Positions 6,223 to 57,600 of a stretch of DNA of 64,000 bases are shown in pieces (within the stretch, counting starts at the first letter, position 1; the number at the start of each line of letters is the position of its first letter). The notes under the pieces were generated by a model. That model did no database searches. It was not told the DNA's origin and worked only from the letters and a program-made list of their open reading frames with translations. Origin of the DNA: an uncultured delta proteobacterium (GTDB lineage Bacteria > Desulfobacterota > Desulfobacteria > Desulfobacterales > JAHEIW01); assembly GCA_963706575.1 (NCBI GenBank), contig CAVPNL010000008.1:32001-96000 (forward strand), written 5' to 3'. Made by a program: the position numbers and the translations under genes.

Positions 6223-9200
6223 TTGATTTTAAACAATAAAATATGTCGGAGAGGGAATACGCGCCATTGTACCACCAGCGTGGGGTGGATCACCGCATCA
6301 CTGATTGCGGTGATGGTCGTTTTCGCCTCGAGCCCTGCTAACGCCGCGATCGGAGCTTCACTCGTAACCTCTATCGCTGACGGTACAGATACTTCCTCCT
6401 ATGACTTTCCTTCGGCCACTTACTCCAACAACGTTCTTTACATCGCCTTTACTTCCACTGCCTGCGGCAGCGGACAGAATTGCGGTCTTGGTGTAGACAT
6501 CGTCGCTGCAGTAGAGAGTGTCAGCGGGGCGGGATTGAATTTCACTGAGATCGGGACACCTGGCGGGGAGGTTTTCAGCACAAACGGTCGGCGCATCCAG
6601 GCCTGGCGGGCATTGGTCGCCAGCGGGGCCGGCACAGGGGCTGTCACGGTTACCATGCAAACCGGAACTATCTCTGCTTCAATGGGTGCGGCGATGATTG
6701 AGTTCACGGGCACTAAGACCAGCGGCACGAACGGCGCTGACGCTGTTGTGCAATGGCCCACGAACAGCGCCAGTGGAGTTAGCTCGCTTACCGTCAATAT
6801 GGCGGCTTTCGCCGATTCTAACAACAGGCCGGTCGCCTTCTTTTCGCACAGAGCCCAATCAGGCAGCGAGGCAACGACCCACGACACTGCGGAAGGATAC
6901 ACGGAACTGTATGACGGGCCTCATGACAGTGTTATGATGGCTGACATGGCCGAGTGGCATGCCACAGCGGCAAACACCACTCCCTCAGCTTCATGGACTA
7001 GCTCGGGTTCCACTGGCGGGTTTGCCCTGGAAATAGCAGAAGCAGGCGCTCCGGCGGCTGCCACCCTCACCCAGGCCCATGTTCGCTGGCGCAATGACGA
7101 TGGCGGGGAGTCGGGTGGTGGCTCGTGCGTTGCCGGGCCGACGGAGTATTCAACAGCTCAAGATTCAACGACGTACGTCGTTCCTACAGGGTGTGATGTG
7201 ATTACGGTAAAAGCCTGGGGTGCCGGCGGTGGCGGCGGAGAGTCGACCGGCAGCAATACCGGCGGATCCGGCGGTGGCAGCGGGTTTGCACAGACTGACC
7301 TATCGGTGACCCCCGGTGAAAATCTCACGGTCATTGTCGGCGGCGGCGGGCCCGGTGGAAGCAATGCCGGTGGTGACGGCGGTGGCGGCAACGGTGTTAC
7401 TGCTGCCGGTGGCGGTACCGGTGGCGATGCGGGAGATCCCGGTAGCGGCGATTCCGGCGGTGGTGGTGGCGGCGGAGGTTATGCAGCGGTCCTGCGCAGC
7501 GGCACCTATCTCGTGCAAGCCGGCGGCGGCGGCGGCGGCGGCGGCACCGGAAATAGCGCTGGGGATGGCGGCGCCGGGGGCGCTGGTGGTGGATCAAGCG
7601 GTCTTTCTGGCAGCACTGGTGGGGGCTCAGGTGGAGTCGGGGGTGGCGCGGGAACGGCCTCGGCCGGTGGCGCTGGCGGTGCCTTAAGCGGCTCCGCCGG
7701 CTCGGCAAACACCGGAGGCACAGGCGGCACCAATTCGGGTGACGATCCCGGCGGCGGCGGCGGTGGCGGCGCTGGACGTTACGGCGGCGGCGGCGGTGGC
7801 GCGGCTTCCCCTGAAACCGCCGGCGGCGGTGGCGGCGGTGGATCAGGTCTTGTCACCGGAACTAATACGTCACTGCAGCAAGGATCGGGTTCGACCGCGG
7901 CCAATACCGGCGATACAGACTACGCGGGCAATGCCGGGCAGGGGGGGGCTGCCGGAACAGATGGCAATCCCGGTCGAATTGTTATCATACCCAGCAGTTC
8001 CGGTGGTGGTGGCAGTATCAGTGAAACAGGAAGTGCAACAAATATAGGATCTAGTAGCGCTGCTTCAATTACACACGGCCTGACCATAAATGCCGATGAT
8101 GTGATCGTTGCCATGATTCATGTAAATACAGATAGCACTGATGTTTCTGACAACAATGGTGCTTACGCGTTTACAGAGCAAATCGACGAACCAAATGGAG
8201 GGACTTCAAGTCATTATGCAATTTATTCCAGGGTAGCCGGCGCTTCAGAACCCGCCAGCTATTCATGGAACCTTGGTGGTTCTTGGGCTTGGTCTATACA
8301 AATCCGTGTATTCTCCGGGGTAGATACTGCTACTGTCTGGGACGTAGCACCTTCCACGTCTACCAGATCTTTTGCAGGTTCAGGCACCACTGCAACCGCC
8401 CCAACCATGACCACGTCAACTGACGGTGCAATGGGAATCATTGCCTTCTTCTCCGATAGTTTGGAAACTTTTAGCAATCCCACCAATGGCTATGCAACGG
8501 AGGTTGAACCTGCCAGCAGCAGGGCTCAGGCGAGTTATATTCGCACATGGGCATCTGCGGGGGTAACAGGAACATCGAGTGCCACCCTCTCTGCTTCAAA
8601 TGACTGGCTGGCACATCAATTTGCATTAAAACCCGCGTCGGGCAGTGGTGCCACCTGGGCAGCCGACGAAGACACCAAGCTGACGGGCCTGGCTAAAAGC
8701 ACCACCAGGCGGCTGCGCTTCCTGGTGGACAATTCCGGCACCGCAAGCTCCGGGGCCGTTTCTTATGAATTGCAGGTACAGGAGACAGACACCTGTGGCT
8801 CGGGATCCTATACGGCGGTGGACTCCTCGACTCACTGGAACATCGTGGATTCCACCTACGTGACCGACGGCGCTGCTTCGGAAAATGTCAGCGGCGGTCT
8901 GACGGATCCGGGCGGCTCGTCCTGGGTAGCCGGTGAACTGGAAGACAGCGCAGATTCTCCCGACCCGATCACTCTAGCTGCCAGCGAATTCACTGAAATC
9001 GAGTTTGCCGTGCAGGCAACTGCCAGCGCCACAGACGGCGGGGACTATTGCTTTAAGCTGACCGACAGCGGGACCGATCTGGACAGTTATTCAAATTATG
9101 CCGAGGTTGCCCTTTCAGGGGGCAGCGGAGCAACGCTCAACCAGGCCCACGTCCGTTGGCGCAACGACGATGGTGCGGAGAGCGGTGGTTCGACCACTGC

Positions 9201-12200
9201 CGTTTCGGATTCGTTTACCGAGTCAGCCAACACGGTTCTTACATCCCATTCCCCGGATACAGGAACCGGCTGGACGGAGGTTTATGACAGTTCCCCGAGT
9301 GGTGATGATGCCACAGTAGTGGCCACGGAAGACATCGTAAGAGCAGGTTCGAGTGTAAACGACGTTGGGCAGGCTTATACGGCCCAACCTGCGCCGGCGG
9401 GTGTCGATCAGGATATCAGCATTGCTATAGATACTTTAATATCCGATACCGGAACCAAGCCTTTTGGACTCTTTGGAAGGCGCACGGATAACAGCAATTT
9501 CTACCACGTTCAGATTCTTCCAAATGAGCACAGTGAAGCCAGCGTTAAGCTCTGGAAGTTTGTAAGCAGCGTGGATACCGAACTGGGGTCCTATGATGCT
9601 ACGCTGGCAGTTGGTGATATCATTAAGCTCGAAATCAGGGACGCCACCAAAAAAGTTTATATTAATGGTGTCGAGCGAATTAGTTCCTCGGACAATTCCC
9701 TTACCAATGCGGGCACCTGGGGTCTCTATTTTGGAAATTATAATGGTGCCGGAGCAGGAGGCCACCTGCGGGTTGACTGGCGACTGGATAACTTTCTGGC
9801 CGAAGACCCTGGAGGAGGCTCAGGCGCTACCTTTAGCATAGACGAAGATACGGCGCTGACGGGTCTGGATAAAAACACCAACACCCGGGTCCGTTTCCTG
9901 GTGTCGAATAGCGGCGGTACGACCGCCAGCAACACCAGCTACCAGCTCGAGTTTGCCGAAGCAGCCACCTGCAGCTCCGGCTCCTACAGCGCGGTGCCTG
10001 CCACCGCCGGCGCAGGTGATAAATGGCAGATTGTGGATTCAACTCATTATACCGACCCAACGGCCACGGCAGATATTACCGACGGGGTCGACGACGCGCT
10101 GCCCAACCCGGGCGGTATGAGCTTTGTGGCCGGTGAGCTGAGGGATGACAACAGCAACAGCACCGGGGGAATTACCCTGGATCCGAACGAGTTTAGCGAA
10201 ATCGAGTTTACCATTCAGGCGACCAATGACGCCCTGGACGGCACCCATTATTGCTTTAAACTGACCGAAAGCGGAACGGATCTGGATAGTTATTCATATT
10301 ATGCAGAGGTTACCCTTTCAGGGACTCCTCCCAATTCAGCTCCAACCTTAACCGTCGATGAACCCGACGGGGCTGGCGATACGGTAACCGTCGGTGACAA
10401 CTACAACATCCAGTATGACCTGGCCGATACCGATGATGTTGTCACCGTTGCATTTTTACTATGATACCGACAACAGCGGACTCGACGGCACCGCCATAAC
10501 CGGCGCCTGTGCAGGCTGCAGCCGAAGGCACCGATGTCACCTGCAGCTGGGATACCACCGGCGTGACGCCCGGCAACTATTACGTTTACGGCATCACCGA
10601 TGACGGAACCAATCCCGCAGGTGAGTGCTTACTCGTCGGGACAAATTACCATTAATGCTGCTTCGGCCGCCACCCTCGATCAGCTCCACTACCGCTGGCG
10701 CAATGATGATGCGGGGGAGTCTGTTATCCCCCTGGATACGGGATCCGGAGCCGATGGCTCTGTGACGATTTCAGCATCTGAAAATATCAATACGGCTGTC
10801 CTGGGTTCCAGTCGTTCGACTTATGCGGACGGAATCCTAACCACGGTTACGGCAAATCCGACCGCAACCTCCATTAGCGTTACCGATACGACCGGTTTTG
10901 CGGCCGGCGATGAGATTTTATTGATCAACCTCCAGGGTGCCTCGGGCGATGTGGCAGATGTCGGTAACTATGAATTCCTTACCGTCGATACCGTCCCCAA
11001 CGGCACGACGATCAATGTAACATCGACGATTACCAAATCATACGACGGAACGACTTTTGCCAACCAAAGCATTATTGTCCAAAGGGTACCTCAATGGACG
11101 TCGGTGACCATCAATTCCGGCGGGACATTAACAGCCAATGCCTGGGATGGGACCAGCGGCGGGGTCATTGTCTTCAGGGCCACGGGGTCCGTTACTGTCA
11201 ACACGGGCGGGAAGATTGACGCCACCGGCATAGGCTACAGGGGTGGTGCCGGCGGTACGAGTGACGGCGGAAACAACGGCGAGTCTTACGACGGTCAGAA
11301 TGGGAAAGGCGGTGCCGATGACTCACGGGGCACGCTGGGCGGAGGCTCAGGTGAGAACTACCCAACCCAAGATAACACTACCGGCACCCGCGGCGGTGGT
11401 GGCGGTGGTGGTGAAACCGGTAGTATAGGCCAGGGTGGCGCAGGCGGAGGTGGTGGCGGCTACGGCGGCGGCGGCGGCGGTGGCGGCGGAGGTACAGATA
11501 CAGACAACTATATTTCAGGCGGCGGTGGAGCCGGCGGAACCACCGGCGATAGCGCAGGCGGCGGCGGCCACGGTGAAAACAGTGGCACCTCCGGCGATGG
11601 AGGATCTGCCGGTAACCCGGGCAACGATGGAGGCGTAAGCGTGGCCGTGGGCGGCGGTTTGGCCGGTAGCGGTACAACCACCGGCCAGGGCGGTCATTCT
11701 GAGGACGCCTCAGATTCCCCGGGCGGTGGCGGCGGTGGCGGTGGGAGCTACGGTATTGCGAACCTAACTCAGATTTTTTGTGGCTCAGGCGGTGGCGGTG
11801 GCGGCGATTCCGGTGCGGTTACGGGAGACGGGGAAACCGGAGGCGCCGGCGGGGGCATCATTTTCATCATTGCCGACACGGTTGATAATAACGCGACTAT
11901 CCAATTGCAGGGCGCGGACGGGGTAGACGCTACGGACGGGGACGGCGCGAGCGGTGGCGGTGCCGGCGGCAGTCTCTTGATCCAGGCGAACACGGTTGAC
12001 AATACTGGCGGCACGATTACCGCTGCCGGAGGCACTGGTGGAGCTGTGGATACGAATGATGACGCCGGCGGTGGCGGCGGCGGCGGCGTCGGTCGCATCC
12101 GTATCGAAGCCGATACGATCATTGGCACCAGCACCCCGGCTGCATCAACGAGCGGCACTCCTACTTCGGGAAGTAGCGCAAGCTGGGCAGCCGACGAAGA

Positions 12201-15200
12201 CACCAAACTGAACGGCCTGGCCAAAAGCGCCAACAAGCGGTTGCGTTTTCTGGTTGATAATACCGGTACCGGGAGTTCCGATGCGGTATCCTATGAGCTT
12301 CAGGTAGCCGAAAGTGCAACATGTGGCTCAGGATCTTATTCAGCGGTGGATTCTTCCACTCACTGGAACATTGTGGACTCCACTTATGTTACCGACGGTA
12401 GTGCCTCTGAAAATGTCAGTGGCGGACTGACGGATCCAGGAGGGTCCTCCTGGATGGACGGTGAGTTAGAGGACAGCGCTGATTCTACCGATGCGATCAC
12501 TCTCGGTGCTAGCGAATTCACCGAAATAGAGTTTGCCGTGCAAGCCACGGCCAGCGCGACCGATGGCGGGGATTATTGTTTTAAATTGGTTAATGCTGCC
12601 GGCGGTGCCCTGGACTCTTATACGGCGTATGCTCAGGTACGCATCGCGGGCGCGCATCTTACCCAGGACCATTACCGCTGGAGAAATGACAATGGTGGAG
12701 AGACCGCATCATCAACCGTGACCTACCAGAAAGGCGACGGTAAAGGCAGTGTTTCTGAGACGGATGATGCGACGTTGCATTCGACTAATTCTACTACAAA
12801 TTATGGCTCTGACGCTGCCCTCCTGATAGATGACACTCCTGATTTACACGCAGTTATCAAATTTCCCAATATTTTTGGTGGGGGCGCGAACCAGATTCCC
12901 CTGGGTTCAACGATCACCAGTGCCACATTGACCGTTGAAGTATTTGACCCGGGTACAGAAATAGCCGTTTACCAGGTTACTGAGAGTTGGATTGAAGATC
13001 AGGTGAGTTGGACCAACCGAGTTACCGGTACCCCCTGGTCCAATGCAGGTGCTGATGGAACCCTCTCCCATAAAGCAACAGCGGACGACACTTTTACAAA
13101 CGGCAGTAATGGTTCCAGGGATATCGATGTCATCACCAGTGTTCAGAACTGGTCCGCCGGAGAAGCGAATGAAGGATGGGTTTTTATCAACACGACTACC
13201 GGTGGTGTGGATGTAAGATCCAGCGAATATGGGACATTAGCCCAGCGTCCAAAGCTCTCAGTAACCTATGGTAGTGGTTCCGGTGCCACCTTTGCCGCCG
13301 ATGAAGACACCGCAATTACCGGTCTTGCTAAAAACACCAATAAACGGGTTCGCTTTCTGGTGTCCAATAGCGGCGATACGACCGCCAGCAACACCAGCTA
13401 CCAGCTCGAGTTTGCCGAAACCGACACTTGCAGCTCCGGCTCTTACAGCGCGGTGCCTGCCTCCGCCGGCGCCGGCGATAAATGGGAGATCGTGGATTCA
13501 ACTTATATCAGCGACGGAGAAACGACTTCAGATATCGATGACGGAGTCGACGATGCGCTGCCCAATCCGGGCGGCATGAGCTTTGTGGCCGGCGAGCTGC
13601 GCGATGACAACAGCAACAGCACCGGCGGAATTACCCTGGATCAGGATGAGTTTAGCGAAATCGAGTTTACCATCCAGGCGACCGATGACGCCCTTGACGG
13701 CACCCATTATTGCTTCAGGCTGACCGACAGCGGAACCGATCTGAACAGTTATTCATATTATGCCGAGGTTACCCTTGCGGGGGCTTCCAATTCAGCTCCG
13801 ACTGCCCCGACAACCCCTTACAGCAACGACACCAGCGCCCAGAGCGGACAGACCAATCCCAGCGGCATCACCGATCCCACCCCGGCCTTCAGCGCGATTT
13901 ACAATGACCCCGATTCAGCGGGGATATCGCCAACAAATACCGGGTGGAGGTCAACACCGCCAGCGATTTTAACGGCACGGTGATGTGGGATTCCGGCGCC
14001 TCGGGTACGAGCATGCCAGACACCACCGCAGGCAACCGCTGCCCGGACATCATCTATGCGGGCTCGGCGCTGGCCGACAGCACCACCTATTACTGGCGCA
14101 TTACCTTCTGGGACGATGGCGGCAGCCGAAGGCACGGTAAGCGCCACCCAGAATTTTACCACCGGGACGATCGCCACCACGACCCTGAGCTGGGGGGAAA
14201 ACAGCAGCCGGGACGACTTTAACGCTGTAACCGAGGATACGTATTTAGATCAGGATCAGCCCAGTTACGACATGGGCACCAACCCGCTTATTCGTGTTGG
14301 AGACGACGGCAGTCGCATCAACAGAACCCTGATAAAATATGATCTTACTGCCCTTGACGGCCTCGTCACAAGCTCCAGTCAAATCGTTTCCGCCACCCTC
14401 AAGATGAAAACCTATAATGACGACGCTGACCCTGGAAACATCGATGTTGATGCATTCAGAGTTAAAAAAGATTGGTTTGAAGGAACCAAAAGTTATGATC
14501 CGGCAGATGATGTGGATGATGCTGCCACCTGGCAATATCAGGTTTTTAACGAGACCTCGTGGACCGGCGCCGGCTGTGATGATTCAGCCGATAGAGAAAC
14601 GACTTCAGACGATGTTGAAACATTTGCTGCAGATTATACGTGGTACTCCTGGGATGTAACCGATTCGGTCAAATATTTCTTCGATACCCCATCCAGTAAT
14701 TTTGGATGGCTTTTAAAAGCGCAGAGTGAGGGGATAACCAAATATTGGCGAATATACAGCAGTGAAGCGGCTGAGGCAAACCGGCCCTATCTGGAAATCA
14801 CGATTAACGATGATCCGGCTTGCGGCTATGCTTACAAGCGGGCCATTACCATCGATCACAACGATGTCATCGGCGACAGCGGAGATACCGTGGATCTGGT
14901 TGATTTTCCGGTTGTGATAAAAGAATCCGGCACCTGGCTCAGAAACAGCGGCTACACCGACGGGCGCATCGAAAATGTTAACGGCTATGACATCATCTTC
15001 AAAGATTCCACCGAAACGCTGACCCTGGCGCACGAAATCGAGTATTATAACGAAGGTTCCGAGGCCGCCAACGGGGAAGCTGATGGCCTGGGTAAAAATT
15101 CCCACCCTCGATGCGGATGCCAATACCGTCATTTACATGTATTACGGCAACAGCTGTATTACGGCTGAGACTCAAAATAAAAACGCGGTTTGGAACGCCA

Positions 15201-18200
15201 ACTACAAGGGTGTCTGGCACATGTCTGAAGAGGTTGCCGGCACCGGGACCGCGGATCTGTACCAGGATTCCACCTCGAATGCACAGCCACGGAGATGACA
15301 ATGTGGACGCAACGGATCAGACAGGCCAGATCGATGGTGGACAGCAATTTGATGGCGTCGATGATCACGCCCTTGTTTCGGATCCAGGCGGGAGCTGGGA
15401 ATTTAGTGAAGGTGGTCTGGATGGCGGTACGAGCGATTTCAGCATTTCAGCCTGGGTGAGGCTGGATGCTTCGGGAACTGAGATTTTTCCAACCATCGTT
15501 AAGAAAGGTGGCGGTTCGGATACCGCCGGGGGGTACTGGTTCAACTATTATCTGACTGACGACACTCTGGATCTCAGGGTGTCGGATGGTACCAATCGGT
15601 TCATTGCAAATTCAAACACGGGCCTTGGCCTGGAAGGTGCCGGCTGGCACCACGTCTACTGCCGTTTTCGACCGTGAGGCCGGTACGGATACCGCCTACT
15701 TCTATCTGGATGGAAGCCCGGTGGGATCGGAGGGCTCCAGCCTGATTGCCGACAATTCAATCAATGAAGATAACGATCTTAGTATCGGTGCAAATAGAGC
15801 AAGCACCTGGAGGCCCTGGAAAGGGGAGATTGACGAAGTCCGCATAACCAACGTCGCGCGCACCGCCGGCTGGATTAGAGACTTCATTCAACAACCAGGA
15901 CGATCCTTCTATTTTTTACGGGCTGGGCGGTGAACAGTCCAGCGGCAATCAAACCCCCGCCGATCCGACGATCAACGACCACAATGACGGCAGCACGACC
16001 TCGGACAACACCCCCACGCTAGGCTTTACCCAGTCGGACCCGGATGCCTCCGAGCAGGTCAAATATCGCATCCAGATCGATGACGACGGACAACACCTTC
16101 AGTAATCTGGTGGTGGATTACACATCGGCTCTGATGGCCGAAGGGGCCGCCAGCTTCACCGTGGGTCAGGCGGCAGGATCAGGCACTTACACTGTCGGCA
16201 GCGAAAGCCAGACGCTGACAGACGGTGACTATTTTTGGCGGGTGATGACCACCGATGATGAAGCGGCTGCCAGCGGCTGGACCCAGGCGACTGCGGGCAG
16301 CAATGTCGCTTTTACGGTGGATACTAGCAGCGGGGGCGGGGCAGATGATGACTACACTCAGGACGCCGACATTGTCTCCTGGTGGTATCTGGATGAATCC
16401 TCCGGCACCCGCTATGACGGTTCGGCAGCAGCAACAATGATCTGAGCTGATACCAATTCCAACGTCAGCGCTCTACAGCACCACCGGCGCCGTCCGTCAA
16501 AGAAGGCGCTGCCGCCGCCAGATTTTGAAAACTCAGCCAGCGAAGATGCCCATCTGTAGGATTGCGACGACTCCCAGACCGGTCTTGAGCATCACCGGCA
16601 AGTCTCACCCTTGTGGCCTGGTTAGACTGGAGTCAACCGGGGATACCAGGACATTGTCGCCAAAGACGATGCTACCGGTAACAGAGGGCTATCACCTTCG
16701 TTATCAATGGGACCGGCGGGCTGAGATTTTATTCTTTCCAGACGATGGCACCAACATTACCGCTCGAGTGCATGGATCGACCACAGTGTCTGCCGGAACG
16801 TGGTATCATGCGGCCTGGCGTATAACGGCACCGATGTTCGGCTGTATCTCAATGACAGCTTTACATCAACGGGATCCGACGCAACCCCTGTATCTTACAG
16901 CGGCGGAATATATCAGCAACACGCACCGTTTACCATCGGATGCCGCAAGGGCAATGTTCAGATTTTTCGACGGGCAGATCGACGAAGTGGCGGTCTTTAG
17001 CCGGGCGCTTAACGCTGATGAGGTCAAATCCATTTACGAAAAAGGTCTTAACGGCGTCACCCGCATGCGGCCGGATGCCGCCCAGCCGCCGGTTCCCTAC
17101 TTTGGCCGCTCCATCGGCGAAAATACCGGAACGGTTTACGGCACCGGTACGGTGACGCTCAATCAGGGATCTCGGCGGGCCAGCTTCTCGGGGGCGACAC
17201 TGCCGACAAACATCGGCGAAGGTGATGTGCTCACCATTGGCGGCTCCACCTATTATATTGCCAGCCGGGAGTCGGCCACGGAAGTCATCGTCCAGGAAGC
17301 CAACATCAGCGGGGGTGATCATTCCGGTGCCGGCTATACGATTACCCGTGCTTACAGCGGCTCCAACCATACGCCTTTCACGAGCTGGGAGGATGCTCGG
17401 GATGGAGATCTGGTGACCGATGATTCCATTCAAAGGGGAATTTGCTACAAAGATAGCGATGGCGTCTTTGATTTTAGCAATGGGATAATCTTCGACGATT
17501 CTACGACCGACAGCAGCCATTTCATGTGGCTTACCGCCCATTCCAGCGCCCGCCACAGCGGGACGGCAGGGACCGGGGTTATCGTCGATGGCAGTGGTAT
17601 TGCAGCCGGCCACGGATTCAAAGTGATGAATCCCTATATGAGAATGGAGTGGCTGGAGATCAGAAACTATCCCGGTGACACATCTTCCGCCCAGCCAATC
17701 AACATGGGGTACCTTGGGGACGCCTCGAACAGCCTCCTCTCACATCTGATCATTCATGACTTTACATCGGATGATCAGAATAGGGGTGGAATCAATATCT
17801 ACAGCAGCGTCACCATTCGCAATAGCATCCTTTACAACGGGGACAGGGGAATTCGTGTTTACGAAGATGGTATTACCGTCACTTTGGATAACAACACCAT
17901 TTATAATATGACCGATGACGGAATTTACTTTACACAGCTGAGTACCGCCATTCTGAGAAACAATATTTCAGTGGGTAACGGAACGACGAGTGGCCAGGAT
18001 TTTGACATCGATGACTGCGGATGTGACGATTCATGCGAGTTCCGGAAACAATCTCTATTCCACTGTTGACGGTGGTGTCCATCCGGGCAGCAACAACCAG
18101 TCCCCGCCGGCCAGCCTTGATGATCTTTTTGTTACCATTACCGGCGGATCGGAAAACCTGCACCTGGAAGCCAGCGGCCACAATGCCCTGAATAACGGTG

Positions 18201-21200
18201 CAGGATTTATCGTCTTCATTTACCGATGACATCGATGCCGAGACCCGTCCCACCGGTGTCGGCACCTGGGACATCGGGGCTGATGAAAATTTAGGTGCCG
18301 GTAATTCAGCACCCACAGCACCAACCACACCCTATGCTAATGACGATTCGGCGCAGAGCGGACAGACCAATCCGAGCGGGATCATTGATGCCACCCCGGC
18401 CTTTAGCGCAATATACAACGACCCTGATTCAGGGGATATCGCCAACAAATACCGCGTGGAAGTGAACACCCAGAGCGATTTTGGCGGAACAGTAATGTGG
18501 AATTCCGGCTCTTCGGGTACGAGTATGTCTGACATCACAGAAGGAAACCGCTGCCCGGATATCACCTATGCTGGCACAGTCTTGGCCAACAGCACCACCT
18601 ACTACTGGCGCATTACATTCTGGGACGACGGCGGCACCGAAGGAACGGCAAGCGCCACACAGAATTTTACGACGGGCACCCTTACCTTGCCTTTTGCAGA
18701 TGGTTTCGAAAGTGGTGATCTGAGTGCATGGAGTGGCAATAACACCGAGCCGGGCGATACGATCGCAGCATCTACCGAACAGGTCAATTCAGGAACCTAC
18801 TCTGCCAAGTCTGTTGTTGATAACGATGGGGCTGCCAATCAGGCAATGGTTTGGAGAAATTTTGCCGGTGAAACTGTGGTTTATGCCAGAATACACATCT
18901 ACGTGCCTTCCAGTTTCTCGACCACCGACAATGTCACTGTAATGCAATTCCTCAATAACTGGTCCAATATCATCGCAACGACCATTGATGATGACATGAC
19001 CCTTTATATGTGGAATGCTGTGGCAGGCGAAGCTTACGGATTTGGCATCGGTTCAACCCTGTCAAAAGATGAGTGGCATTGCCTGGAGATGATGGCGATT
19101 ATTTCTCCGACGATCGGTGAGGCGCGGCTCTGGCTGGATGGTAGCTTAGAAATTGAGGCCACCGGTAAAAATCTGGGATCAAACGATATTGATAAATTTG
19201 CGGCGGGCTATTACTGGGCCATTCCGTATGATGAGAGTAACACTTTATACATCGATGATGCTGTTGTTGATACCTCAGCAAACGGTTGTGTAGTCGATGA
19301 ACTCTATCGCTCGGTGGGCACCACTGCTACCGATCTAAATACCGGCTCACATACGGTCGAGATCTCGGGCTCCACAGCGACTTTTTCCGGTTCCATGCCG
19401 GACAATATCGGGGTGGGTGATGTGTTGGCGTACAATAACGGCAGCGCCCAGCTGGCATTTATTCACGGCCGCAGTTCTGCTACGGCCTTTACGGTCAAAG
19501 ACAAAAACGGCGAAACCCCGGCGGCAGCGTCAGCGGGAACATCGGTCGGAGTTTATCGCGCCTATACCTCGTTGAGCAATTGGGAATCGCAGACTGAAAA
19601 TGCCAACATCACCGAGCCCGCCGAAGACGATGTCAACCCTTCAACGGATCTGGTTACGGCCAATACCATAATGATGGTGGCCTGCTATGGCGATGGCGAA
19701 GACGCGGCTTCAGTTTACATTGATAGCTGGACCACGGATCCGGACAACTATATCAAGATCTACACCCCCACTTCATTGAGCGAGGTTGGCACCAGCCAGC
19801 GGCACAATGGGGCCTGGGATACCTCGGCCTATCGCATATCAATGGACGGGACTTATTTCGCTCCGATAGGAATACGAGAGCGCTACGTCCGTATCGATGG
19901 GCTGCAAATAGATAGTAATCTTGAGTATAATAATGAGTCGAACGGGATTCATGTCAGTGATGATAATGCTGATGCCGCAGTAGAGATTCATATTTCCAAT
20001 TCAATTTTTCGGATGACGAGCGCCCCTCCAACTACCGCGGCATTTGGTATTGGCGCTTTGAATCAGTTTGGTGGAGCTAACAGCCTTTACGTTGCCAAAG
20101 TATGGAATAACATCATCTATGGCTATGCGGTTAGCGGCGGTGGCGGTAACTGTATATACGCTCAAAATAATGGCACCGTTTATGCCTACAACAACACCTG
20201 TGTCGGCGGCAGTGGGGCTGGAAACGGAATAGCGGCATGGGATAATATAGATTTCTATGCCAAGAATAACATCTCTATCGATTTTACGGATCCATACAAA
20301 AATACGTTTCACGCGGACAGTACCAATAACGTCTCCGATACCGGAGATGCACCGGGGAGCAACCCGATCAATGGAGAGCCCACTTTTGCGAATAAAGCCG
20401 GCAATGATTACCACCTGGCCGTCAGTGATACCGTGGCCCGGGGGGCGGGCGCGGACCTCGATGGGGATGCCATTCTTCCCGTCACCGACGACATCGACGG
20501 CAACGGCAGGGATGCCTCTGCCCCTGACATCGGTGCCGATGAGTACCTTGCGGCTTCCACATCCACGCTTTATCGCTCGGTGGGCATCACGGCCACCGAC
20601 CTTAATACCGGATCGCGTACGGTAGAGATCTCCGGTTCCACAGCAACTTTTTCCGGTGACATGCCGACCCATGTCGGGGTGGGTGATGTGCTGGCTTACA
20701 ACAATGGCAGCAGCCGGATCGCTTTTATCCATGGTCGCAGTTCAGCCACTGTTTTTACCGTAAAAGATAAAGACGGCGAAACCCCGGCGGCAGCATCAGC
20801 GGGGACATCGGTGGGTGTCTATCGCGCTTACACCTCATTGAGCAACTGGGAATCGCAGACTGAAAATGCGAACATCACCGAACCCGCCGAAGATGATGTC
20901 AACCCCTCAATTAATCTGGTTGCTGCGAATACCATTATAATGGTGGCCTGCTATAACGACGGGGTGATGGACGACGGCAGCATCAGCATCGATGGGTACA
21001 CCACCGGAGCCGGTAATTACATCCGGATCTTTACCCCGACTGACACCAGTGAGGTGGGCACGAGCCAGCGGAACGACGGCACGGCCGGAACAGGATTCGT
21101 CCTGAAGCCACAGACCTCGTCTCCGGGTCAATATTACTCTGTTATTCGAATCGAGGAAGATTATGTCCGGATCGAGGGGGTCGAGATCGACGGCCTCCTT

Positions 21201-24200
21201 GTGACCAACGCAGAGTATAACAGGGGCATTCTCACCACGAATACCGCAGCGGCCAGCGACATCCGGATTGACAGGTGTCTCATTCACGATCTTACGAGTT
21301 CGAAGGTGGCGGCCACTACGCATGCTGCCATGGGAATAGCGCTCACCAGCGGGTCGGCCCGAATAACCAATACGATTATCTACAATATCCACAATACCAG
21401 CACCGACCCAAATTCTTTCGCGAGGGGAATACGAATCGAAACCGGCAGCACCACAAATTATCTTTACAACAACACCATCTATAATGTCACGAACACGGGA
21501 AGTTCATACAACCAGTATGGTATTTTGGTTGATACCGGCACGGTGATAGCAACGAACAACTACGTGGGCGGCACAAGCGGTTTGGGTACGGTGGCTGATT
21601 TTAATGGCACGATGACGCAGAGCTACAACATCTCCTCTGACGGCACGGCCAGCGGCAGCGGCTCGCTGACAAACCGCACGGCCACCGAAAATTCCGATCC
21701 GGGCGCCGGTGACTGGGTGGTATTTTCGGATCTGAGCACCGGCGGTGAAGATTTTCACCTGCAGTATGTGGCTGAAAACGATGCGCTCAATGCCGGGGCA
21801 GATCTATCCGGTACTTTCAGCGATGACATCGACGGGGAAACGCGCCCGACCGGTGCCAATACCTGGGACATCGGGGCCGATGAAATCAACGAGTCCTGCA
21901 ACGATAAATTTGCCTACCGACGTCTGATTACCATCGATCATAACCAGGTGGGCCTGGATAATAATCCGGGCACCCTTCCAAATTTCCCGGCCCTTGTAAG
22001 TTTATCTGGCAAATGGCTTAACACCACCAGCGCAGATCCTACTAATGGACGAATTGAGCATTACAAAGGCTGGGACGTTGTTTTCAGGGCCTCCGACGAA
22101 GTCACCCATTTGGACCATGAGATCGAATACTATGACGGTTCGGCATCCGGTGGTGATGTTACCAAAAGCGACGGCTGGTACACAGGATTAGGAGCCTATA
22201 CGGTGCCGGCCGGCAGCGATCGGCTGCTGATTTTTGTGACTGGTTTAGAAGATGCCTCTGACAACCAGACCACCATCACCAGTGTGACCTATGGCGGCGT
22301 GAGTATGACCCCGGCTGTTGAGCACTTTTCATACAGCAGCCCGCTGACCGTGCGAACCGGAATCTGGTATTTGAGGGATGCCGACATCCCGGCCGGCAGC
22401 AACAGCTTTGTGGTTACCTACAGTCCTTCTGACCCGGGCCGCAACCGTCACGCTTACGCTCTTTTTACCAACGTCAGTCAAATAAATCCCATTGTTGATT
22501 CGGATTCGGGTGCAGTAACGAGCTCAACAACCATCACGACGGACAATCCCATTGATGTGGTTGCAGGCGGAATGTCGGTTTCGGCTGTAGTCTCCAATAA
22601 CGTTGGAAACTATGACGACAATTCATGGGGAACCGGCTGGACGGAGGGCACCGATCAAGCCTCGGGCTGGCATACGGTGGGTTCGGCCAACAGCGGCGCA
22701 TATGGATCAGACACAACAGACAGCGGCTCTGCCACGTTTAATATAGCCGCCAGACAGGTTATCGTTGCTGCCTGTCTGCGGCCCTCGTCGGATGGGGATT
22801 TGGTGGCCTGGGTGCGCATCCCCAGTCTTGCCAAGGATACCGATAGCCAGATTTACATGTACTACGGCAACAGCTGTGTCGCTAATAACCCGGAAAATTC
22901 GGCAGGTGTCTGGGTTGACTACGCCGGTGTCTGGCACTTAACAGAAGACGGCAATGGAACTGCCGATGAATTCAAAGACAGCGCCCAATACGGCAATCAC
23001 GGGCAAGGCGGTGAGGGTACCGTTGAGTTTGTGCCCAGCCAGGTGACCGGTCAGATTGCCAACGGGCAGGATTTTGATAATTCAGATGGCAAATGGGAGC
23101 TGATTGATTGCGGCAATGATTCGAGCCTGGACATCACCGGAAATCAAATAACGCTGCAGGCCTGGGTGAAGTACGATAGTGCTACTCACAGCCACATGGG
23201 TCCGTTAAACCACAAAGGCTGGAACAATGGCTACCGTCTGCTCATGGGGGAAAATGCCACCACAGTCAATTTCCAGATAACGGGGTCAAGCTATGACCTG
23301 GAGTCCAGCGGAACCCTTTCCACCGGTGCCTGGCATCATCTTGTGGCAACCTATGACGGTTCCAAAATGAAGATTTATATCGATGGTGCCAAGGATGCCA
23401 ATGAGCTCGATAAAACCGACAACATCCTTTCCGTGCCACCGACCGAAAATGAAGTCTGGATCGGGCACGCTGATCAGCCAAAGGACGTGGCGTGGAGTTA
23501 TCCATGGGACGGCCAGATTGACGAAGTCCGTATTTCTGCGACCGCCCAATCTGCGGACTGGATCGCCACCGAATACAACAACCAGAGCTCACCGGTCACG
23601 TTTTTAAGTGCAGGTGCCGAGGGAGCCGGCGGGCCCACCGCCATCAGCCTGGTCGAATTTACGGCCACCGGCGCAGGCAACGCGGTGCAGGTCAACTGGC
23701 AAACCGCCCAGGAGGTGTCCAACGTGGGCTTTAACCTGTACCGGGCAGACAGCCGCACAGGGCAGCTTTGAAAAAATCAACAACAGCCCTGATCCCGGCA
23801 CTGAGCTTTTCAGTCACCGGCAGAAGCTACGGTTTTATCGACACCGACGTGGTGTTGGGCCAGCTTGTACTATTACAAGCTTGAAGACATCGATGTCTAC
23901 GGCAAGCGCACCATGCACGGGCCCATCTGCGTGGACTGGGACGGCGACGGGCTGCCCGATGACTGGGAGATCAGATACGGGCTTAACCCGTGGTTAAATG
24001 ATGCCAATCTCGATTCTGACGGTGACGGGCTGACCAACCTGCAGGAATATGAGCTGGGCACCGACCCGTTTAACCCCGATACCGACGGAGATGGGATTCC
24101 AGATGGCCAGGAAGCCAGGAAGCGAGAAAGCCAGGAAGCTGAAGGCACGCATCAGCTTAGCCGCGGGGTGGAGGTTGTCGCTGAAGATGAAAATGGCATT

Positions 24201-27200
24201 ACCTTAGCGCTTTACACCGACACATTTTTTACCGAGAGCGTTTATGCCGACGGTATGGAATACGAACGGCTAAAGATCGATGATTACGTGCACGGTTTTA
24301 GCAGCGAGGTGGGCAAACCAGAGCTTCCGCTAAAAGGCATCCTGGTTAATATCCCCGAAGGGCAGATAGGCGAGCTGTCCATTTTACAAACCGTTGTTGA
24401 GACCCATAGCGGTTATCAGATCTTTCCGGTACCGGCAAACAGCGTTGATGATCAGGGTGTGGCAGCGGCTGTGGCAGAGAGCTTTGTAAAAGACGAAGCC
24501 GCCTATCAACAAGATGCCTTTTACCCGCAAGCAGTCGCGCAGTTAGGTGATCTGTTTGTCTTCCGTGATCAAAACAAACAGCAGCTGCTGTTTTACCCGT
24601 TTGCCTTTAACGCGGTAACCGGCGAACTTAACCATTACAAACGCATTCAGGTGCGTATTGACTATGTCAATGATCTGTATGCCAAAGTTGAAGATCACAG
24701 CGTTAGCCCCTGGTCGGTACCGCTGCCCGCACCATCTTCAGGCGATCTGTCAGAGACACTGGCCTCGATGGGCTCTTATGCCATGGCCTTTGGGGCATCG
24801 CCTTTGATCGTAAACCCGCTCTCCCCGGCGCTTACCTCTGTGGGTGTGATCATGGGCGCGGTGTGGTCACCGCCAGCTGATGGGGCTGCCGGCGCCTATA
24901 AGATCATGGTCTCAGAAGATGGCCTCTACCGGCTTGACAGCGCCTTTTTTAGCCAACAACGGCATTAATCCCGCCGACATCGATTTAGATACCGTGCGCC
25001 TCTATCATATGGGTGAAGAAGTCGCTGTTTTGGTCAACGATGCCGACACCCCCGGTGCCTTTGACGCCAACGATTATATCGAGTTTTACGGCCAGCCGGT
25101 AGCGGATCAATATGCCAAATACGCGGCCCAAAACATCTACTGGCTGGTGACCGCTGGCGGCATCGGAACCCCCAAACGCATGGTGGCAGTCGATGGCACC
25201 CCGGCGGCCGGGCCTTTGGCCACCGAGCACAGCGCTTCTGGTGCGCTTAGAAGACGATGAATACTATGTGGGGCTGGCCCCGGGGGCAAACGAACGCGAC
25301 CGCTGGTTTTTTGATGACTTTGTGCTGGGCACTGACTTTACCGGCGGAGCCGGATCCGGTTGAGGTGCCCTTTGACCTCACCTTGCCGGGGGTTATCGGT
25401 CAGGGCAATCTTACCATCTCCTTGTGGGGCTATTATGACACCGGCCATGAAGTGGAGGTGTGGGTAAATGATGTGTCCCAGGGCACTTTTAGCTGGTCCG
25501 GCATTGCCTTTTATGAGGTGAACCTGAGCGGGCTTAATTTAACCGAAAACACCACCGTAAAACTTGCCTGCCACACCGCTATGGACGGGCTCGATTGTTG
25601 ATTATATCGAGGCCACTTACCCGCAAAGCTTTGCCGCGGTCACTGACAGCCTTCACCTTTAGCCACGACAGCGGCTACCGCTATATCATCGATGATTTTA
25701 GCACCGATGCCCTGCGTGTTTTTGACATCACCGAACCAGTTGATGTGGCACAGGTCACCGACCTACAAATTAACGGCACAGGTCCGTTTAGCCTTGAGTT
25801 TGAACCGCCGCCAAGCGGGCTGACCGACACCTTTCTTATCATCGGCACCGATGATTATAAGATCCCTGATGCGATTGTTGAAGATACGCCCTCTGATCTG
25901 GCCGACACCGCCAACAGCGCCGATTATATCTTAATTACCCACCAAGACATCGGCTGGGACGGTGGCGGTGCTCCAATATGGCTGGTTAACCGATCTGGTT
26001 GCCCTGCGTGAAGATGGTGATCTTAGAAGTCAAGGTGGTTAATGTCACCGACATCTACGATGAGTTTAGTTACGGGATACCCACCCCGGTGGCGATCCGT
26101 GATTTTCTGTCCTATGCCTACAGCAACTGGCGTACGCCCGCACCGCAGTATGTGCTTTTGGTGGGCGATAGCACCTATGATTTTAAGGACAACTACAACC
26201 GGGGCACCGTAAACCATGTGCCCGCATATACGGTGTTTACCGATTATATGGGGGAGACGGTCACAGACGAATACTTTGTCACCATCAGCGGCGATGATGC
26301 GCATGGTTGACATGTACATCGGGCGGCTTCCGGCCCAAAGCGCAGCTGAAGCGCACGGCGATGGCTAAATAAGATTATCGCCTATGAGACCGGGCTTAAC
26401 ACCGGCAGCTGGGAGAAAAACGTGGTACTGGTCGCCGATGATCAAACCGAGGCCTATGAGGCGGTCTTTGAGACCATCAATGAGGATGCCGCAGCGCTTC
26501 TGCCCTCAAAGATGGTGGCGCTTAAAGGGCTATTTAAACGATTATCTGCTGTCTGGTGATTTAAGCACTGACATCACCAACTGGATCAATGACGGGGCGC
26601 TAATTGTCAATTACAGCGGTCATGCCTCACTGCAGCAGTGGGCCGCCGAGGCGGTGTTTGTAAATGCCGATGTAAACACCCTGACCAACACAGGCAAATA
26701 TCCGTTTTTTATCTCCATGAGCTGTTTGACCGGCTACTTCGGGTACCTGGATGCAGCCCTGGGCCCGCAGCCTTCATTGGCCGAAGCACTTGTTGCAGGC
26801 CGCCGACAAAGGGGCCGTAGCTGCGCTAATGCCCACGGGCATGACCACCACAGCAGGCCAGCACATATTCAACAACGCGGTCTTTGAGGCCATTTTTGTA
26901 AACGATATCAGACAATTGGGCCCTGCGATCGCCGCTGCCAAACAAACCCTTTTAGCTAACGGCGATGCCTATTTTGAACAGATATCGCAAACCTTTTTGC
27001 TCTTTGGCGACCCGGCTCAAACTTTAAAGATCCCGCTGCCCAGGATGCCCAGCGGGGTAAAGGCCTATTGGGAAAACAACTCCGTGCGCATTCACTGGAA
27101 TGCGGCCTTAGATAGCAACGGCAACGCGGTGGCGGGCTACAACATCTACCGCGCCAGTGCCCCGGCAGGCCCTTACAGCAGGGTCAACACCGAGCTTGTC

Positions 27201-27497
27201 AGCGGCACCGAGTTTGTCGACACTGACGGCACAGTGGGAATTAATGAGGGCGGTGGAGCCGGCGGCAGTTATTACGGGGTCACTGCGGTTGACAGCTTCG
27301 GGGATGAAAGTGCCCAGTCTTTAGGCATCAGCCCGGCTTCAGTCGCCTCATCGGCCGAAGCCGCGGTGGCGGCCTGTTTTGTCGGTGCTGTCAATGGGTC
27401 AATACCCGCGGGGCTGTTCTGGATTTTGGCGGTCTTTGCCATCGCGGTGGTCGTTGCCCATTGGCGCTCCCGCAATATGCGGGATTTCACTTCTTGA
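6223..27497 (+). CDS. Giant surface protein 2 (~7,100 aa after frameshift correction): signal peptide, four RWRNDD scaffold domains with passengers (Gly-rich, lectin-like, DNRLRE), DUF2341/LamG, beta-helix modules, C25 peptidase cassette, TM tail
   Basis: N-terminus [10 protein letters not shown]...[16 protein letters not shown] is a Sec-type signal. Long ORFs 6223-10464, 10600-13983, 14056-15168, 16525-18069, 18198-23771, 23865-24968 and 26751-27497 link through frameshifts, with no new signal peptide or intergenic gap. His codon 26621, Cys codon 26723. Confidence 0.85.
13790..14165 (+). repeat. Intragenic module '[10 protein letters not shown]...[10 protein letters not shown]' (FN3/Ig-like spacer); four copies at 13790, 18300, 52685 and 57650
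   Basis: Near-identical DNA and protein: [38 protein letters not shown]...RCPDI.YAG...[11 protein letters not shown]. Confidence 0.9.
14821..15220 (+). repeat. DUF2341 module '[23 protein letters not shown]'; three copies at 14821, 53718 and 56542
   Basis: Near-identical DNA encoding [32 protein letters not shown]...LAHEIEYY...[24 protein letters not shown]. Confidence 0.9.
15945..16325 (+). repeat. Intragenic module '[14 protein letters not shown]...AFTVDT' (Ig-like spacer); four copies at 15945, 32990, 34062 and 35703
   Basis: 'acgatcaacgaccacaatgacggcagcacgacctcgga' and the following ~370 bp recur. Confidence 0.9.
19305..20510 (+). repeat. YRSVG domain plus right-handed beta-helix module, near-identical to 51410-52670 in gene 4
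   Basis: Shared long identical peptide [60 protein letters not shown]... Confidence 0.92.
23634..27497 (+). repeat. Conserved C-terminal cassette, copy 2
   Basis: Starts [28 protein letters not shown] and ends [40 protein letters not shown]. Confidence 0.95.
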
Positions 27498-28650: not shown

Positions 28651-28761
28651 GATAATGATTGAAATCAATAAATTTTTTAAAAACCATCGTCATAAAAAAT
28701 CTGACGATCAAAAACACATATGACCCAGAAACTCTCAAATGGAAATGTGTTGCTGCTGCCA

Positions 28762-54600: not shown

Positions 54601-57600
54601 TGGGACGGAACTTCCAGGACCGAGGATGCAGATTTTCGAATTGGAAATAGTACGACGGTCTTGCAGGAATTTGGAGGTACGATTGACGAGGTCCGCGTTT
54701 CCAGCGTCGTGCGCACCGACGGCTGGATTCAAACTTCATTCAATAACCAGGACGATCCCTCTGCTTTTTATGGAATTGGCGGTGAAGGTCCTGTCGGCGG
54801 CACAGCCGACCTTGATCAAATTCACTACCGCTGGCGCGACGATAATGGCGGCGAGACAGGCGGGTTTGATACCGGCACGGGTGTTGATGGATCGGTTACC
54901 ATCGCGACTTCAAAAAATCTCAATACCGATGTGCTTGGATCCCTTCGCTCCACCAACCCTGATGGCATCGCTACTGCAGTTTCTTCATTTGGCAGCGCCA
55001 CCGGCGGCACAACGCTTACAGTAGCATCGGCAAGCGGCTTTGCAGCTGATGATGAAATTTTGCTGATAAATCTTCAGGGGGACGCCACCAACTACGGAAA
55101 TGTCGGCAATTATGAGTTTCTTGAGATCCAGTCCATATCGACCAATACCTTTACGTTTAAGACCGCGATCCAGAAGATATACGGCGCGACGACTTCAAAT
55201 TTAGATTTGACGGGTCAAAAAGTGTTCGTCCAGCGTGTTCCGCAATGGACCGATGTGACCATCGAAGACGGCGGAATCTTAATGTCTGATTACTGGATCG
55301 CTTCAAAAGGCGGTGTCGTCGCTTTTAGAGCCACCGGTGCGGTTACCGTAAATACCAATGGCAGGATCTGGGCTGAAGGTAACGGATACAGGGGAGGGCC
55401 TCAGAACACAGATGCGTCCGTGGACTCGTGGCGCTATAAAGGCGAGGGTTTTATCGGCGGTTTCAGCACTGCAGGATCAGACGGGTCGGCCAACTCAGAA
55501 GGCGGGGGACCGGGCCATTCGGACGGAGATAATGACGTTGGCACGGGTATCGGTGGTGGTGGCGGCGGCGGTTACGGATCGACGGGATCTGACGGAACAA
55601 TTACCCAGGGAACCGGTTTTGAAGGTTTAGGCGGAAGCACCTATGGCGCTCTGGAGCTCACCAAATTATACCTGGGCTCGGCCGGCGGCAGCGGCGGACA
55701 CGATACCGATGCTGCCGGCAGAAACGGCGGGGCTGGCGGCGACGGCGGCGGTATCATTTTTATTGCAGCCGATACCATAATCGTCAACGGTACGATTACC
55801 GGTGACGGTGAAGACGGAAATGCGAGTACCGACGCCGGGTGCGGCGGCGGCGGGGGTAGCGGCGGATCAATCCTTCTTCAGGCGAACACGGCAACATTGG
55901 GCACGAATAAAGTCACCGCTGTCGGGGGTTCCGGGGCAGCTGGATTAAGATCCTGTGATGGCGGCGCTGGCGGGGTCGGGCGCATCCGGGTTGAAGTGGA
56001 TGCCGCCAACCTGTCCGGTACGACCAATCCAACGGCCTCTGAGGCGGACACGCCAGATTCAGGGACGGGTGCCGACTTCCTGGAAGATCAAGACACTCCC
56101 CATACGGGGCTTGACAAATCCACGACGATTCGTCTGAGACTGGAAGTTTCCAATGAAGGCGATGTATTCGCGGATTCTGTTCAATACCGTCTCGAGTATG
56201 CCACATCCACCGGCGGGCCCTGGACAGCGGTGCCCGACACGGCCACAACCGAACACTGGCAGATGTCTGCTTCCGACTATATCAGCGACACCGGAGAAGC
56301 GACGACGGATATTACCGGCGGACTGACCAATGAAAATACCACATTTATGCCCGGAGAGCTCAGAGACAACACCGCCATAACTAACGGCATTACTCTGTCG
56401 GCGATTCAATTCACAGAAATTGAATATTCCATCGAAGCTACCTTCAATGCCACCAATAGCGGGACCTATTACTTCCGTGTAACCAATAGTGGTTCATCGA
56501 CCGACTTTAGCTATTCGGTTTATCCAGAGGTGACACTTAGTTGCGGGTATGCTTACAGACGGGCCATCACCATCGATCACACCAAGGTCATCGGCGACAG
56601 CGGCGATACGGTTGATCAGATCGATTTTCCCGTAGTGATAAATGAATCTGGAACCTGGCTCAGAAACAGCGGCTACAGCGACGGACGCATCGAAAATGTT
56701 AACGGCTATGACATTATCTTCAAAGATGCCACCGAAACAACTACCCTGGCGCACGAAATCGAATATTACAACGCCGGCTCCGAGGCTGCCAACGGGGAGC
56801 TGGTGGCCTGGGTAAGGATCCCCACTCTTGATGCGGATGCAAATACCGTCATTTATATGTATTACGGCAATAGCTGCATTGTAAGCACAACAGAAAATCC
56901 GGCCGGGGTTTGGGCCAATGGGTATGTGGGGGTATGGCATCTTCATGATGATTACAACGACAGTACCTCAAATGCTAATCATATGACTGCTTCTGGAACG
57001 CCGTCTTATACGTCCTCCAAGATTGCCGGCGGCGTCGATTTTGATCAGAGTGGGGCTAACCAGTATCTGAGTCGCACAGACGCCAATTGTGTGGAAATTC
57101 CGGGAAAAAGCGACGGCAGCGGCGCCGATGATTTTACCTTCAGTCTCTGGATGAACCTAGATGATGAAACGACAAGGCATCCGTTTATGTCAAAGCAGTC
57201 ATCTGCCGCCGGGCGCGGTTACGTCTTTTCGAGAGAGGATTCTAACGATACCTATAAAGGGTATATGGAGGTTTACAACTCCAGCTTTGCCCAACACAAT
57301 ATTTATTCAGATTCGCTCAACCAGGACAAATGGTACTACGTGGTGGGAATTTACGATGGTGTCGACGATCTGACGCTCTATATTGCTGACGAAACCGGTT
57401 GGCTAACCAACTCCCCCTGGACTGCAAACCAGCCCAGCCATGGCGCTCCTCGCGACAACACCGCAGATTTTCACATCGGCCGCTATTACTGGGATGCAGG
57501 TAACAATTATCATTTAGACGGAACGCTGGATGAAGCCCGAATTTCCAATACAGTTCGAAGCCAGGGGTGGATTGAGACCGAATACAACAACCAGACCGCT

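Follow-up and report, generated by a model that had tools for sequence, protein, structure and literature searches.

An unnamed domain of predicted giant secreted proteins, whole or split after its first strand by varied passenger domains, as a probable display socket

The DNA analysed here, hereafter the window, is a stretch of 64,000 nucleotides from an uncultured delta proteobacterium (GCA_963706575.1, contig CAVPNL010000008.1, positions 32,001 to 96,000; contig C8 below), and the subject of this report is an unnamed protein domain that occurs in it five times, each time interrupted by a long insert. With a codon-usage path through C8, used for gene prediction across frame breaks, four tandem paralogous giant genes were predicted. 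One of them is represented in the window by its end, two are complete there, and the fourth is present for the most part. The initial annotation had drawn the interrupted domains as a single architecture at 7066..13776; this holds for copies 1-4, which lie in one frameshift-broken giant gene, the second, and not for copy 5, which lies in the fourth, a paralogue. The domain, referred to as the scaffold domain, is a minor part of the mosaic giants in this window. The features are as follows.

7066..7113, plus strand: scaffold copy 1, first strand and neck (residues 1-16)
7114..8649, plus strand: insert 1 (512 amino acids, aa), two passengers in tandem
8650..9120, plus strand: scaffold copy 1, downstream half
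9136..9183, plus strand: scaffold copy 2, first strand and neck
9184..9825, plus strand: insert 2 (214 aa), unnamed domain
9826..10323, plus strand: downstream half of scaffold copy 2 (85% identity with copy 4)
10675..10722, plus strand: scaffold copy 3, first strand and neck
10723..12177, plus strand: insert 3 (485 aa), Gly-rich, resembles the AgmC N-terminal model
12178..12651, plus strand: downstream half of scaffold copy 3 (82% identity with copy 1)
12658..12705, plus strand: scaffold copy 4, first strand and neck, modelled within the sandwich
12706..13284, plus strand: insert 4 (193 aa), CBM96 / DNRLRE domain
13285..13782, plus strand: scaffold copy 4, downstream half
54811..54858, plus strand: scaffold copy 5, first strand and neck
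54859..56070, plus strand: insert 5 (404 aa), Gly-rich, AgmC_N-like
56071..56544, plus strand: scaffold copy 5, downstream half
6223..27497, plus strand: host gene of copies 1-4, predicted secreted mosaic protein of about 7,000 aa
45683..64000, plus strand: giant paralogue that hosts copy 5 and has the same terminal block, extending to about 65,400, past the window end

The N-terminal segment, with the motif L.Q.H.RWR.D, was found five times on the plus strand, at 7066, 9136, 10675, 12658 and 54811, and downstream half-domains of 157-166 residues begin at 8650, 9826, 12178, 13285 and 56071. Chance is excluded for the N-segments, since their 15-column profile, used with a working threshold of 18, gave a maximum score of 5.4 on 285,096 positions of reversed sequence. 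The scaffold domain has about 175 residues, and each of the five copies is broken after residue 15-16 by an insert of 193-512 residues. One open frame spans N-segment, insert and C-half in every copy, in agreement with the claim that all five are interrupted at one junction. The insert borders proposed earlier were confirmed, except that insert 5 ends at 56070 instead of 56069. The proposed start of the C-half, A(T/S)(W/F)AADEDT, does not hold for copy 2 (ATFSIDEDT) or copy 5 (ADFLEDQDT). Pairwise identity among the five downstream halves ranges from 42 to 85%, and in tandem copies the next N-strand lies 5-15 bases past the previous C-half.

Uninterrupted homologues, for which the initial annotation had proposed a search, were found. 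Contig C6 of the same genome carries three whole copies and a broken fourth in tandem, with the strand motif and ATW two residues apart, and three of the 21 same-genus genomes (G306, G314 and G319) have intact copies with 52-60% best identity to the window halves. A profile of the five halves gave 1,758 clusters (50% identity) at E<=0.001, and the best 150 of these were retrieved; 148, together with 32 genome loci and the open reading frames (ORFs) of this genome, made up a first survey, before which the window's own ORFs P0004 and P0006 were left out. Of its 420 instances, 233 are intact and 116 interrupted; a further 48 are truncated at the N-terminal end, and 23 lack a strand motif that scores. 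A further 111 instances came from 78 metagenome loci (44 intact, 41 interrupted at this loop, one elsewhere, 23 cut and two without the motif). Once duplicates had been removed, 262 copies were intact, another 131, among them the five of the window, were interrupted at this loop, and 10 were interrupted at others; the share of split copies is probably overstated because the query was built from split copies. An array of about 20 intact copies in tandem is present in P0003, and three to four stand on C6; these arrays support, indirectly, the earlier view of the scaffold as stalk-forming. Insertion of unrelated passengers at the same loop is likewise correct for the window, and in other subfamilies two additional loops are interrupted, one behind the second main strand (seven cases) and one behind the third (six cases, one possible). 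Such splits at other loops were seen in P0039, P0054, P0080 and P0109; in L010, L041, P0003, P0047, P0051 and P0067; and in G307:C74.

We then consider the fold of the domain and the place of its first strand. AlphaFold2 was run on an intact copy from locus L019 with 48 intact sequences, and gave an all-beta model with a predicted local distance difference test score (pLDDT) of 97.8 and a predicted template modelling score (pTM) of 0.92, in which the first strand is formed by residues 2-10. All top fold matches of this model are immunoglobulin-like (Ig-like) sandwiches: TRAPPII (Z 8.5), 3wnk (Z 8.0, 99 residues aligned, root-mean-square deviation 2.9 Å), TTHA1873 (Z 7.7), CARDB (Z 7.4) and CLIPPER (Z 7.0). 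For the split copy 4 of the window, modelled with an alignment of 37 sequences (32 of them intact), residues 1-10 have pLDDT 96 and residues 211-375 mostly 90-98, and the strand pattern is that of the intact copy. Ig-like matches of this model span residues 1..375 and cover the same target range as those of the intact model (3wnk 42-140, 99 aligned, Z 7.8 vs 8.0), while residues 17-207 separately match CBM structures (8wab, Z 7.8; 7vbo, Z 7.6). The first strand of copy 4 is thus predicted to pack with the downstream half and not with the insert, as the structure test suggested by the initial annotation was meant to decide. The top fold matches of insert 4, in a low-confidence model, are prodomains of the TGF-beta family (Z 7.7-9.2), which probably reflects only a shared jelly-roll.

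Alignment and covariation point in the same direction as the models. Unguided MAFFT placed a single gap of about 193 columns directly after RNDDG. Covariation was analysed in 127 of the 131 split and 161 of the 262 intact copies, those of poor coverage or score having been removed. The pair H5-D25, which lies across the insert, ranked second of all pairs in the split copies alone and also in the intact copies alone; 121 split copies carry H/D at these positions, and the six without H all have N. This covariation may serve as a partly independent check on strand rejoining. The couplings R7-W20, N10-A21 and D12-A18 are high in the intact and pooled sets, and would indicate a short hairpin with the insertion point at its tip.

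As to the passengers themselves, the five inserts had been called different from one another. Homology was found between inserts 3 and 5 (51% over 169 aa, E 1e-44), the sole resembling pair among the five, so that four kinds of insert are present. Both score against the AgmC N-terminal model NF047640 (insert 3, 84 bits, E 9.5e-24; insert 5, 108 bits, E 6e-31) below its cut-off of 275 bits; judged by these scores, they are related to that domain but are not members. Insert 1 was correctly described as a Gly-rich domain plus a second domain. Its domain A (Gly-rich, aa 1-293) is 62% identical to the whole lone insert of L035 and its domain B (aa 298-512) is 78% identical to that of P0101, a Gly linker near 7990-8010 joining the two; against Pfam, insert 1 matched Gly_rich_2 at E 0.009, below the cut-off. 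The name 'lectin-like' for insert 2 found no support, since it has no Pfam match at E<0.04, its closest Atlas look-alikes are unnamed, and no relative was seen among the inserts or proteins fetched. The DNRLRE-like reading of insert 4, by contrast, was borne out by CBM96 / DNRLRE scores above both curated cut-offs (44.6 vs 26 bits for PF24517, 71.1 vs 34 bits for NF033679).

In the whole set of 131 copies split at this loop the passengers measure 161-859 aa (median 344) and fall into 23 BLAST groups, which provides the catalogue of inserts that had been called for. A Pfam scan of 34 inserts gave a match for nine, namely DUF2341 with or without LamG, BNR/Reelin, FG-GAP, CBM96 and one weak DUF1953. 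The share of Gly plus Ser is 37% in the first five positions of the inserts and 39% in the last six, vs 24% overall. In the window, the Gly/Ser flanks described before are present at all five insert ends (GSG, GSS or GTG), and a start with GG is found in three of the five. An intein or Hint reading was rejected: all five inserts end in these Gly/Ser linkers and none in HN, and no Hint family matched at E<=1. DUF2341 is the commonest passenger of the scaffold socket, and DUF2341 modules also stand at window positions 28900-29850, 37150-40230, 46600-49130, 53750-54750, 56548-57600 and others, followed either by LamG with a closing W..TEYNN(Q) motif (about 11 cases) or by a GDDFNDG domain closing in W(V/F)YVR(K/Q)Y (two cases). 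DUF2341 may itself be a second host with alternative passengers, making three tiers together with the scaffold socket.

The modules had been called interchangeable, and near-identical scaffolds do carry unrelated passengers: copies 2 and 4 (85% identity) and copies 1 and 3 (82%) hold unrelated inserts. Copies 1-4 would fit a two-socket unit that was duplicated and then had its passengers replaced, as far as their sequences can tell. To place this in the whole family, a FastTree tree of 275 halves was made (127 of the 131 split and 148 of the 262 intact copies, poor coverage or score removed; unrooted). On this tree the passenger group changes at least 57 times among the 127 split copies (minimum 21; shuffles 80-90), and the intact or split state at least 27 times (shuffles 79-100); gain is not distinguishable from loss, because the tree has no root and relatives have labels in common. 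Of the 151 pairs with at least 70% identity, 77 are in the same state, 49 carry different passengers and 25 are intact vs split. Pairs on different contigs at 78-85% identity with different passengers were found in L035, L038, L039, L041 and L049/P0095, records with different phylum labels share passenger groups, and both passengers of insert 1 fill a socket alone elsewhere. The N-strand DNA of the five window copies is identical at 29-38 of 48 bases, and no site-specific recombination signal is evident at the N-flank, where no search aimed at repeats was made. Recombination in the conserved flanks and G-rich linkers would be the simplest cause of exchange.

The distribution of the domain is broad and patchy. 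Records of homologues are labelled Patescibacteria, Desulfobacterota-type, Acidobacteriota, Nitrospirae, Binatia and Gammaproteobacteria, and the labels Desulfosarcinaceae and Desulfobacteraceae appear on two of the 32 genome loci. The domain is present in seven of 60 closer relatives, many of these genomes being incomplete, and was not found in 300 other genomes drawn across the phylum (many also incomplete). No family above cut-off was found for it in Pfam and none in NCBIfam, the best PHROGs match was at E 0.016, and three profiles matched no PDB chain sequence at E<0.04. In the Atlas, the clusters closest to an intact domain (L019:5932-6462) are unnamed proteins of 180-235 aa, mostly viral (0.93-0.94, low recognition score). 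A link to phages is a weak lead: none of 92 pattern matches on viral contigs was confirmed, and annotated phages, PHROGs and BFVD gave no support.

The host genes give the setting in which the scaffold would act. The giant genes lie at window 1-5556, 6223-27497, about 28700-44142 and 45683-65400, and a fifth is on the minus strand of C6 at about 186000-193300. Three start within the window, each with a Sec-type signal peptide. The predicted host of copies 1-4 joins such a signal peptide to many LamG, DUF2341, Ig and CBM96 modules and to a terminal block of TSP3, C25 propeptide, C25/PorU-like region and membrane tail. All four giants of C8 end in TSP3, C25 propeptide, C25/PorU-like region and a short CFV-membrane-basic tail. 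The end block common to the five giants opens with an Ig domain PTA(I/V)xL..F.A followed by TSP3 repeats and the C25 propeptide, and continues with a C25/PorU-like region containing SMSC (putative catalytic Cys), an FN3-like domain, the CFV motif, a membrane helix and a basic tail. Each giant possibly carries a fused sortase-like or maturation protease. The CFI-box-CTERM model NF041770 did not match at the giant tails and gave one sub-threshold match elsewhere on C8.

The reading frames of these genes are interrupted in the assembly. About 83 frame switches were predicted across the window, densest in the repeated terminal blocks and none within a strand-insert-half unit; the host of copies 1-4 contains about 24 of them, including breaks at 10455-10625, and one unresolved stretch (16426-16961). 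In contigs of other sediment runs, two bases at 13914-15 are absent in three of four runs and one base at 14125 in one of four. Both sites coincide with predicted frame switches (the two breaks covered among the matches shown). These missing bases in contigs from related organisms suggest that the frame switches are assembly indels. The matches listed for the four other sediment runs include neither a joint at any socket border nor a piece that would span the region. Outside the window, just upstream of the array (C8 about 12600-20300, 19 to 12 kb before the window starts), lie ORFs that we take by eye to be prepilin-like (GFSLIEVMIAM), PilX-like and PilY1-like, and the flanks at C8 about 7600-10500 and 97700-100700 hold what we assume, also by eye, to be ABC transporter-like, radical SAM-like, PqqD-like and nucleotidyltransferase-like ORFs. 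The latter may form a modification cassette linked to the giants.

From these results the following mechanism is proposed. A passenger takes the place of the two residues between DDGxE and ATW, as read from the alignments, in which intact and split forms coexist and the passenger varies between near-identical scaffolds. The first strand is predicted to fold back into the downstream half and to complete the Ig-like sandwich. Residues about 7-22 would form a short hairpin, from the tip of which the passenger would bud with its two ends side by side on Gly/Ser linkers, and the path of the stalk chain would be left unaltered. In a secreted, membrane-tethered giant, such an extender-type stalk domain may hold a recognition domain off the axis. 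If the passengers are mostly glycan- or surface-binding heads, several specificities could be arranged along one protein, and passengers may be swapped, acquired or lost through ordinary recombination in the conserved flanks of the scaffold and in the G-rich linkers. The split-socket anatomy itself we regard as almost certain. The fuller description, an unnamed domain of about 175 residues, whole or split after its first strand by a complete passenger and acting as a stalk socket that holds probable binding modules sideways, is in our judgement likely. The side-branch display of binding modules proposed in the initial annotation is consistent with one named passenger (CBM96 / DNRLRE) and, by analogy, with the precedent of RTX adhesins.

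Several points weigh against this description. Strand rejoining in the model is not independent of its alignment, since mostly intact homologues make up that of copy 4, and the insert in this model has pLDDT 31-79, with an overall pTM of 0.66. The H5-D25 signal of split copies comes from six sequences changing both residues, possibly kin, and in the split-only set the hairpin couplings do not stand out. The fold matches score in the middle range (best Z 8.5; alignments cover about 100-125 of the 177 residues), and Foldseek with the scaffold model gave none at E<=0.001 in PDB or BFVD. The first survey contained 14 N-motifs without a half besides the 23 halves without a scoring N-motif, and most of these orphans have the appearance of truncated fragments or of intact copies that have diverged. 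In this assembly the host genes carry frameshifts; 25 of the 34 scanned inserts have no Pfam match, so that most are at best candidate binding heads; and Gly-rich domains without a known role account for three of the five window inserts. Exchange is slow, as passenger labels track the scaffold tree far better than shuffles do, and gene conversion of scaffolds, a live rival, could give the same pattern. With respect to the strand, it could be argued that RWRNDD is part of the domain before it or of the insert; the true repeat would then be the C-half, alone or with the following strand, and the 'inserts' would be in-line neighbours. The short distance from C-half to next N-strand in tandem copies and the good detection of the C-half alone in hidden Markov model searches would agree with this. 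However, N-strands 1, 3 and 5 come after three unrelated domains, C-halves 2, 4 and 5 have no N-strand after them, only two residues separate the strand from the half in 262 intact copies, and both models and fold matches assign the strand to the downstream sandwich; this explanation is largely refuted and has hardly any chance of being correct.

Three other alternatives concern the role of the socket and the history and role of its passengers. The scaffold may be no passive holder, near-invariant R7, R38, R40, E135, H5 and D25 forming a binding, metal or assembly site to which passengers are optional. Polar conservation is unusually high in both classes (R38 99%, R40 100%, E135 98-100%), two thirds of the copies have no passenger, and solved folds match an Ig core that leaves out about 70 residues. 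On the other hand, these residues alternate on neighbouring strands, as an internal salt-bridge network might, the long tandem arrays of intact copies resemble extender domains, and RTX split domains are not known as ligand binders (PMC10865825); we consider an active scaffold unlikely. Alternatively, the passengers could be old, fixed insertions and the scaffolds homogenised by gene conversion or duplication. Such a history would account for the strong tree signal of the passenger labels, for many look-alike pairs within one protein or locus (e.g. P0048, 95%) and for the divergent N-strand DNA with its lack of an evident recombination site, but it sits poorly with different passengers in the different-contig pairs, with the recurrence of passenger groups across phylum labels and with the joining in insert 1 of two passengers found singly elsewhere. 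We give it roughly a one-in-several standing, somewhat above the other alternatives. Finally, the passengers may be structural decorations of a surface coat (spacing, shielding, Gly-rich stiffeners) instead of binding heads. Most passenger groups are unnamed and the Gly-rich window inserts have no known ligand, whereas the nameable passengers are CBM96, LamG and BNR or FG-GAP propellers, typical recognition folds, and as many as 23 groups better fit varied targets; decoration appears improbable, about as much so as the active scaffold. Of the stalk socket with exchangeable passengers a wider version can be conceived, in which the flanks are landing sites for trading binding heads as cassettes among unrelated sediment and groundwater bacteria, Patescibacteria included, at up to three loops and with stacking and nesting. 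Such a cross-phylum plug-in standard is a tentative proposal that we hold to be more doubtful than probable; if it were true, the motif would be bait for a large library of undescribed ligand-binding domains, and the scaffold a natural insertion-tolerant display system.

The socket described here is definable by sequence, in Sec-exported giants of uncultured bacteria, and whatever sits between the two motifs is a candidate for a complete, independently folding domain with exact borders. As most passengers are unnamed, the socket gives a list of candidate adhesion domains, including in host-attached Patescibacteria. Its tolerance of inserts of 161-859 residues is of interest for protein engineering.

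Among known families, CBM96 / DNRLRE (PF24517, NF033679; 8wab, 7vbo) corresponds to insert 4 both in score and in the match of its model to solved CBMs, with the difference that insert 4 is nested in a socket and other family members are in-line in the same giant genes (tblastn match at C8:85229). The scaffold shares its predicted topology with CARDB, DUF11 (CLIPPER) and the GH66 N-terminal Ig-like domain (3idu, 2l0d, 9ifr, 3wnk, 7wrk; Z 7.0-8.0, root-mean-square deviation 2.9-3.7 Å over 96-124 residues). Weak CARDB matches were found in three of 19 intact members (best E 6e-4) and none for DUF11, which itself occurs in the same kind of proteins (P0007 and P0080, in a Pfam scan from which P0003 was excluded). 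In contrast to CARDB (PF07705) and DUF11 (PF01345), none of the five window halves reaches any Pfam cut-off (CARDB 13.2 vs 22.7 bits), about 60-70 extra residues are present, and Z values of this size are common among unrelated sandwiches. A conserved Lys of the first strand in CLIPPER bonds to Asn (PMC12617251). A CLIPPER-DUF11 isopeptide domain was rejected for the scaffold, Lys not being among the two commonest residues at any of positions 1-15 in either class.

The closest parallel in design is with the split (BIg) domains of RTX adhesins. As described in PMC10865825, a 12-residue strand of FrhA starts an Ig-like domain, a sugar-binding domain comes next and the bulk then rejoins; AhLap has three split-domain units, one of them solved (PMC12077191); and a survey of RTX adhesins describes projections after the first strand or before the last two, with nested cases (bioRxiv 10.1101/2025.09.30.679566). 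Compared with these, the scaffold is alike in being a sequence-discontinuous Ig-like sandwich (here predicted), in the single first strand before the insert (12 residues in FrhA, 15-16 here), in passenger ends that lie side by side, in several passenger types, in nested insertions and in more than one usable loop. Side-by-side ends are indicated here by the replaced two-residue link and by the separate fold of model residues 17-207. A candidate ligand-binding passenger is recognised here for one of the five window inserts, CBM96, the greater part of the 34 homologous inserts scanned being without a Pfam match. The absence of an RTX split-domain structure from the 50 fold matches listed excludes nothing as to family homology. 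Literature searches found no description of this scaffold domain, although Graham et al. 2024 may list non-RTX split domains and the supplements of the bioRxiv survey could bear on novelty; the principle is known, and the family, the exact socket motif, the three usable loops and the mostly unnamed passenger library appear to be undescribed.

The window hosts differ from RTX adhesins in their Sec-type signal peptides and in the C25-like block with membrane tail, and the RTX nonapeptide GGxG[ND]Dx[LIF] had no match in the three plus frames, nor was an RTX family found among the Pfam matches of 16 ORFs. Because RTX repeats are lacking and export is of the Sec type, the scaffold is not a member of the RTX adhesin system. 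The split display domains of RTX adhesins are hard to find by sequence. The scaffold described here is larger (about 175 aa) and has at least 23 passenger groups and a sharp socket motif, so that its intact and split forms, and the passengers that they carry, can be catalogued by sequence.

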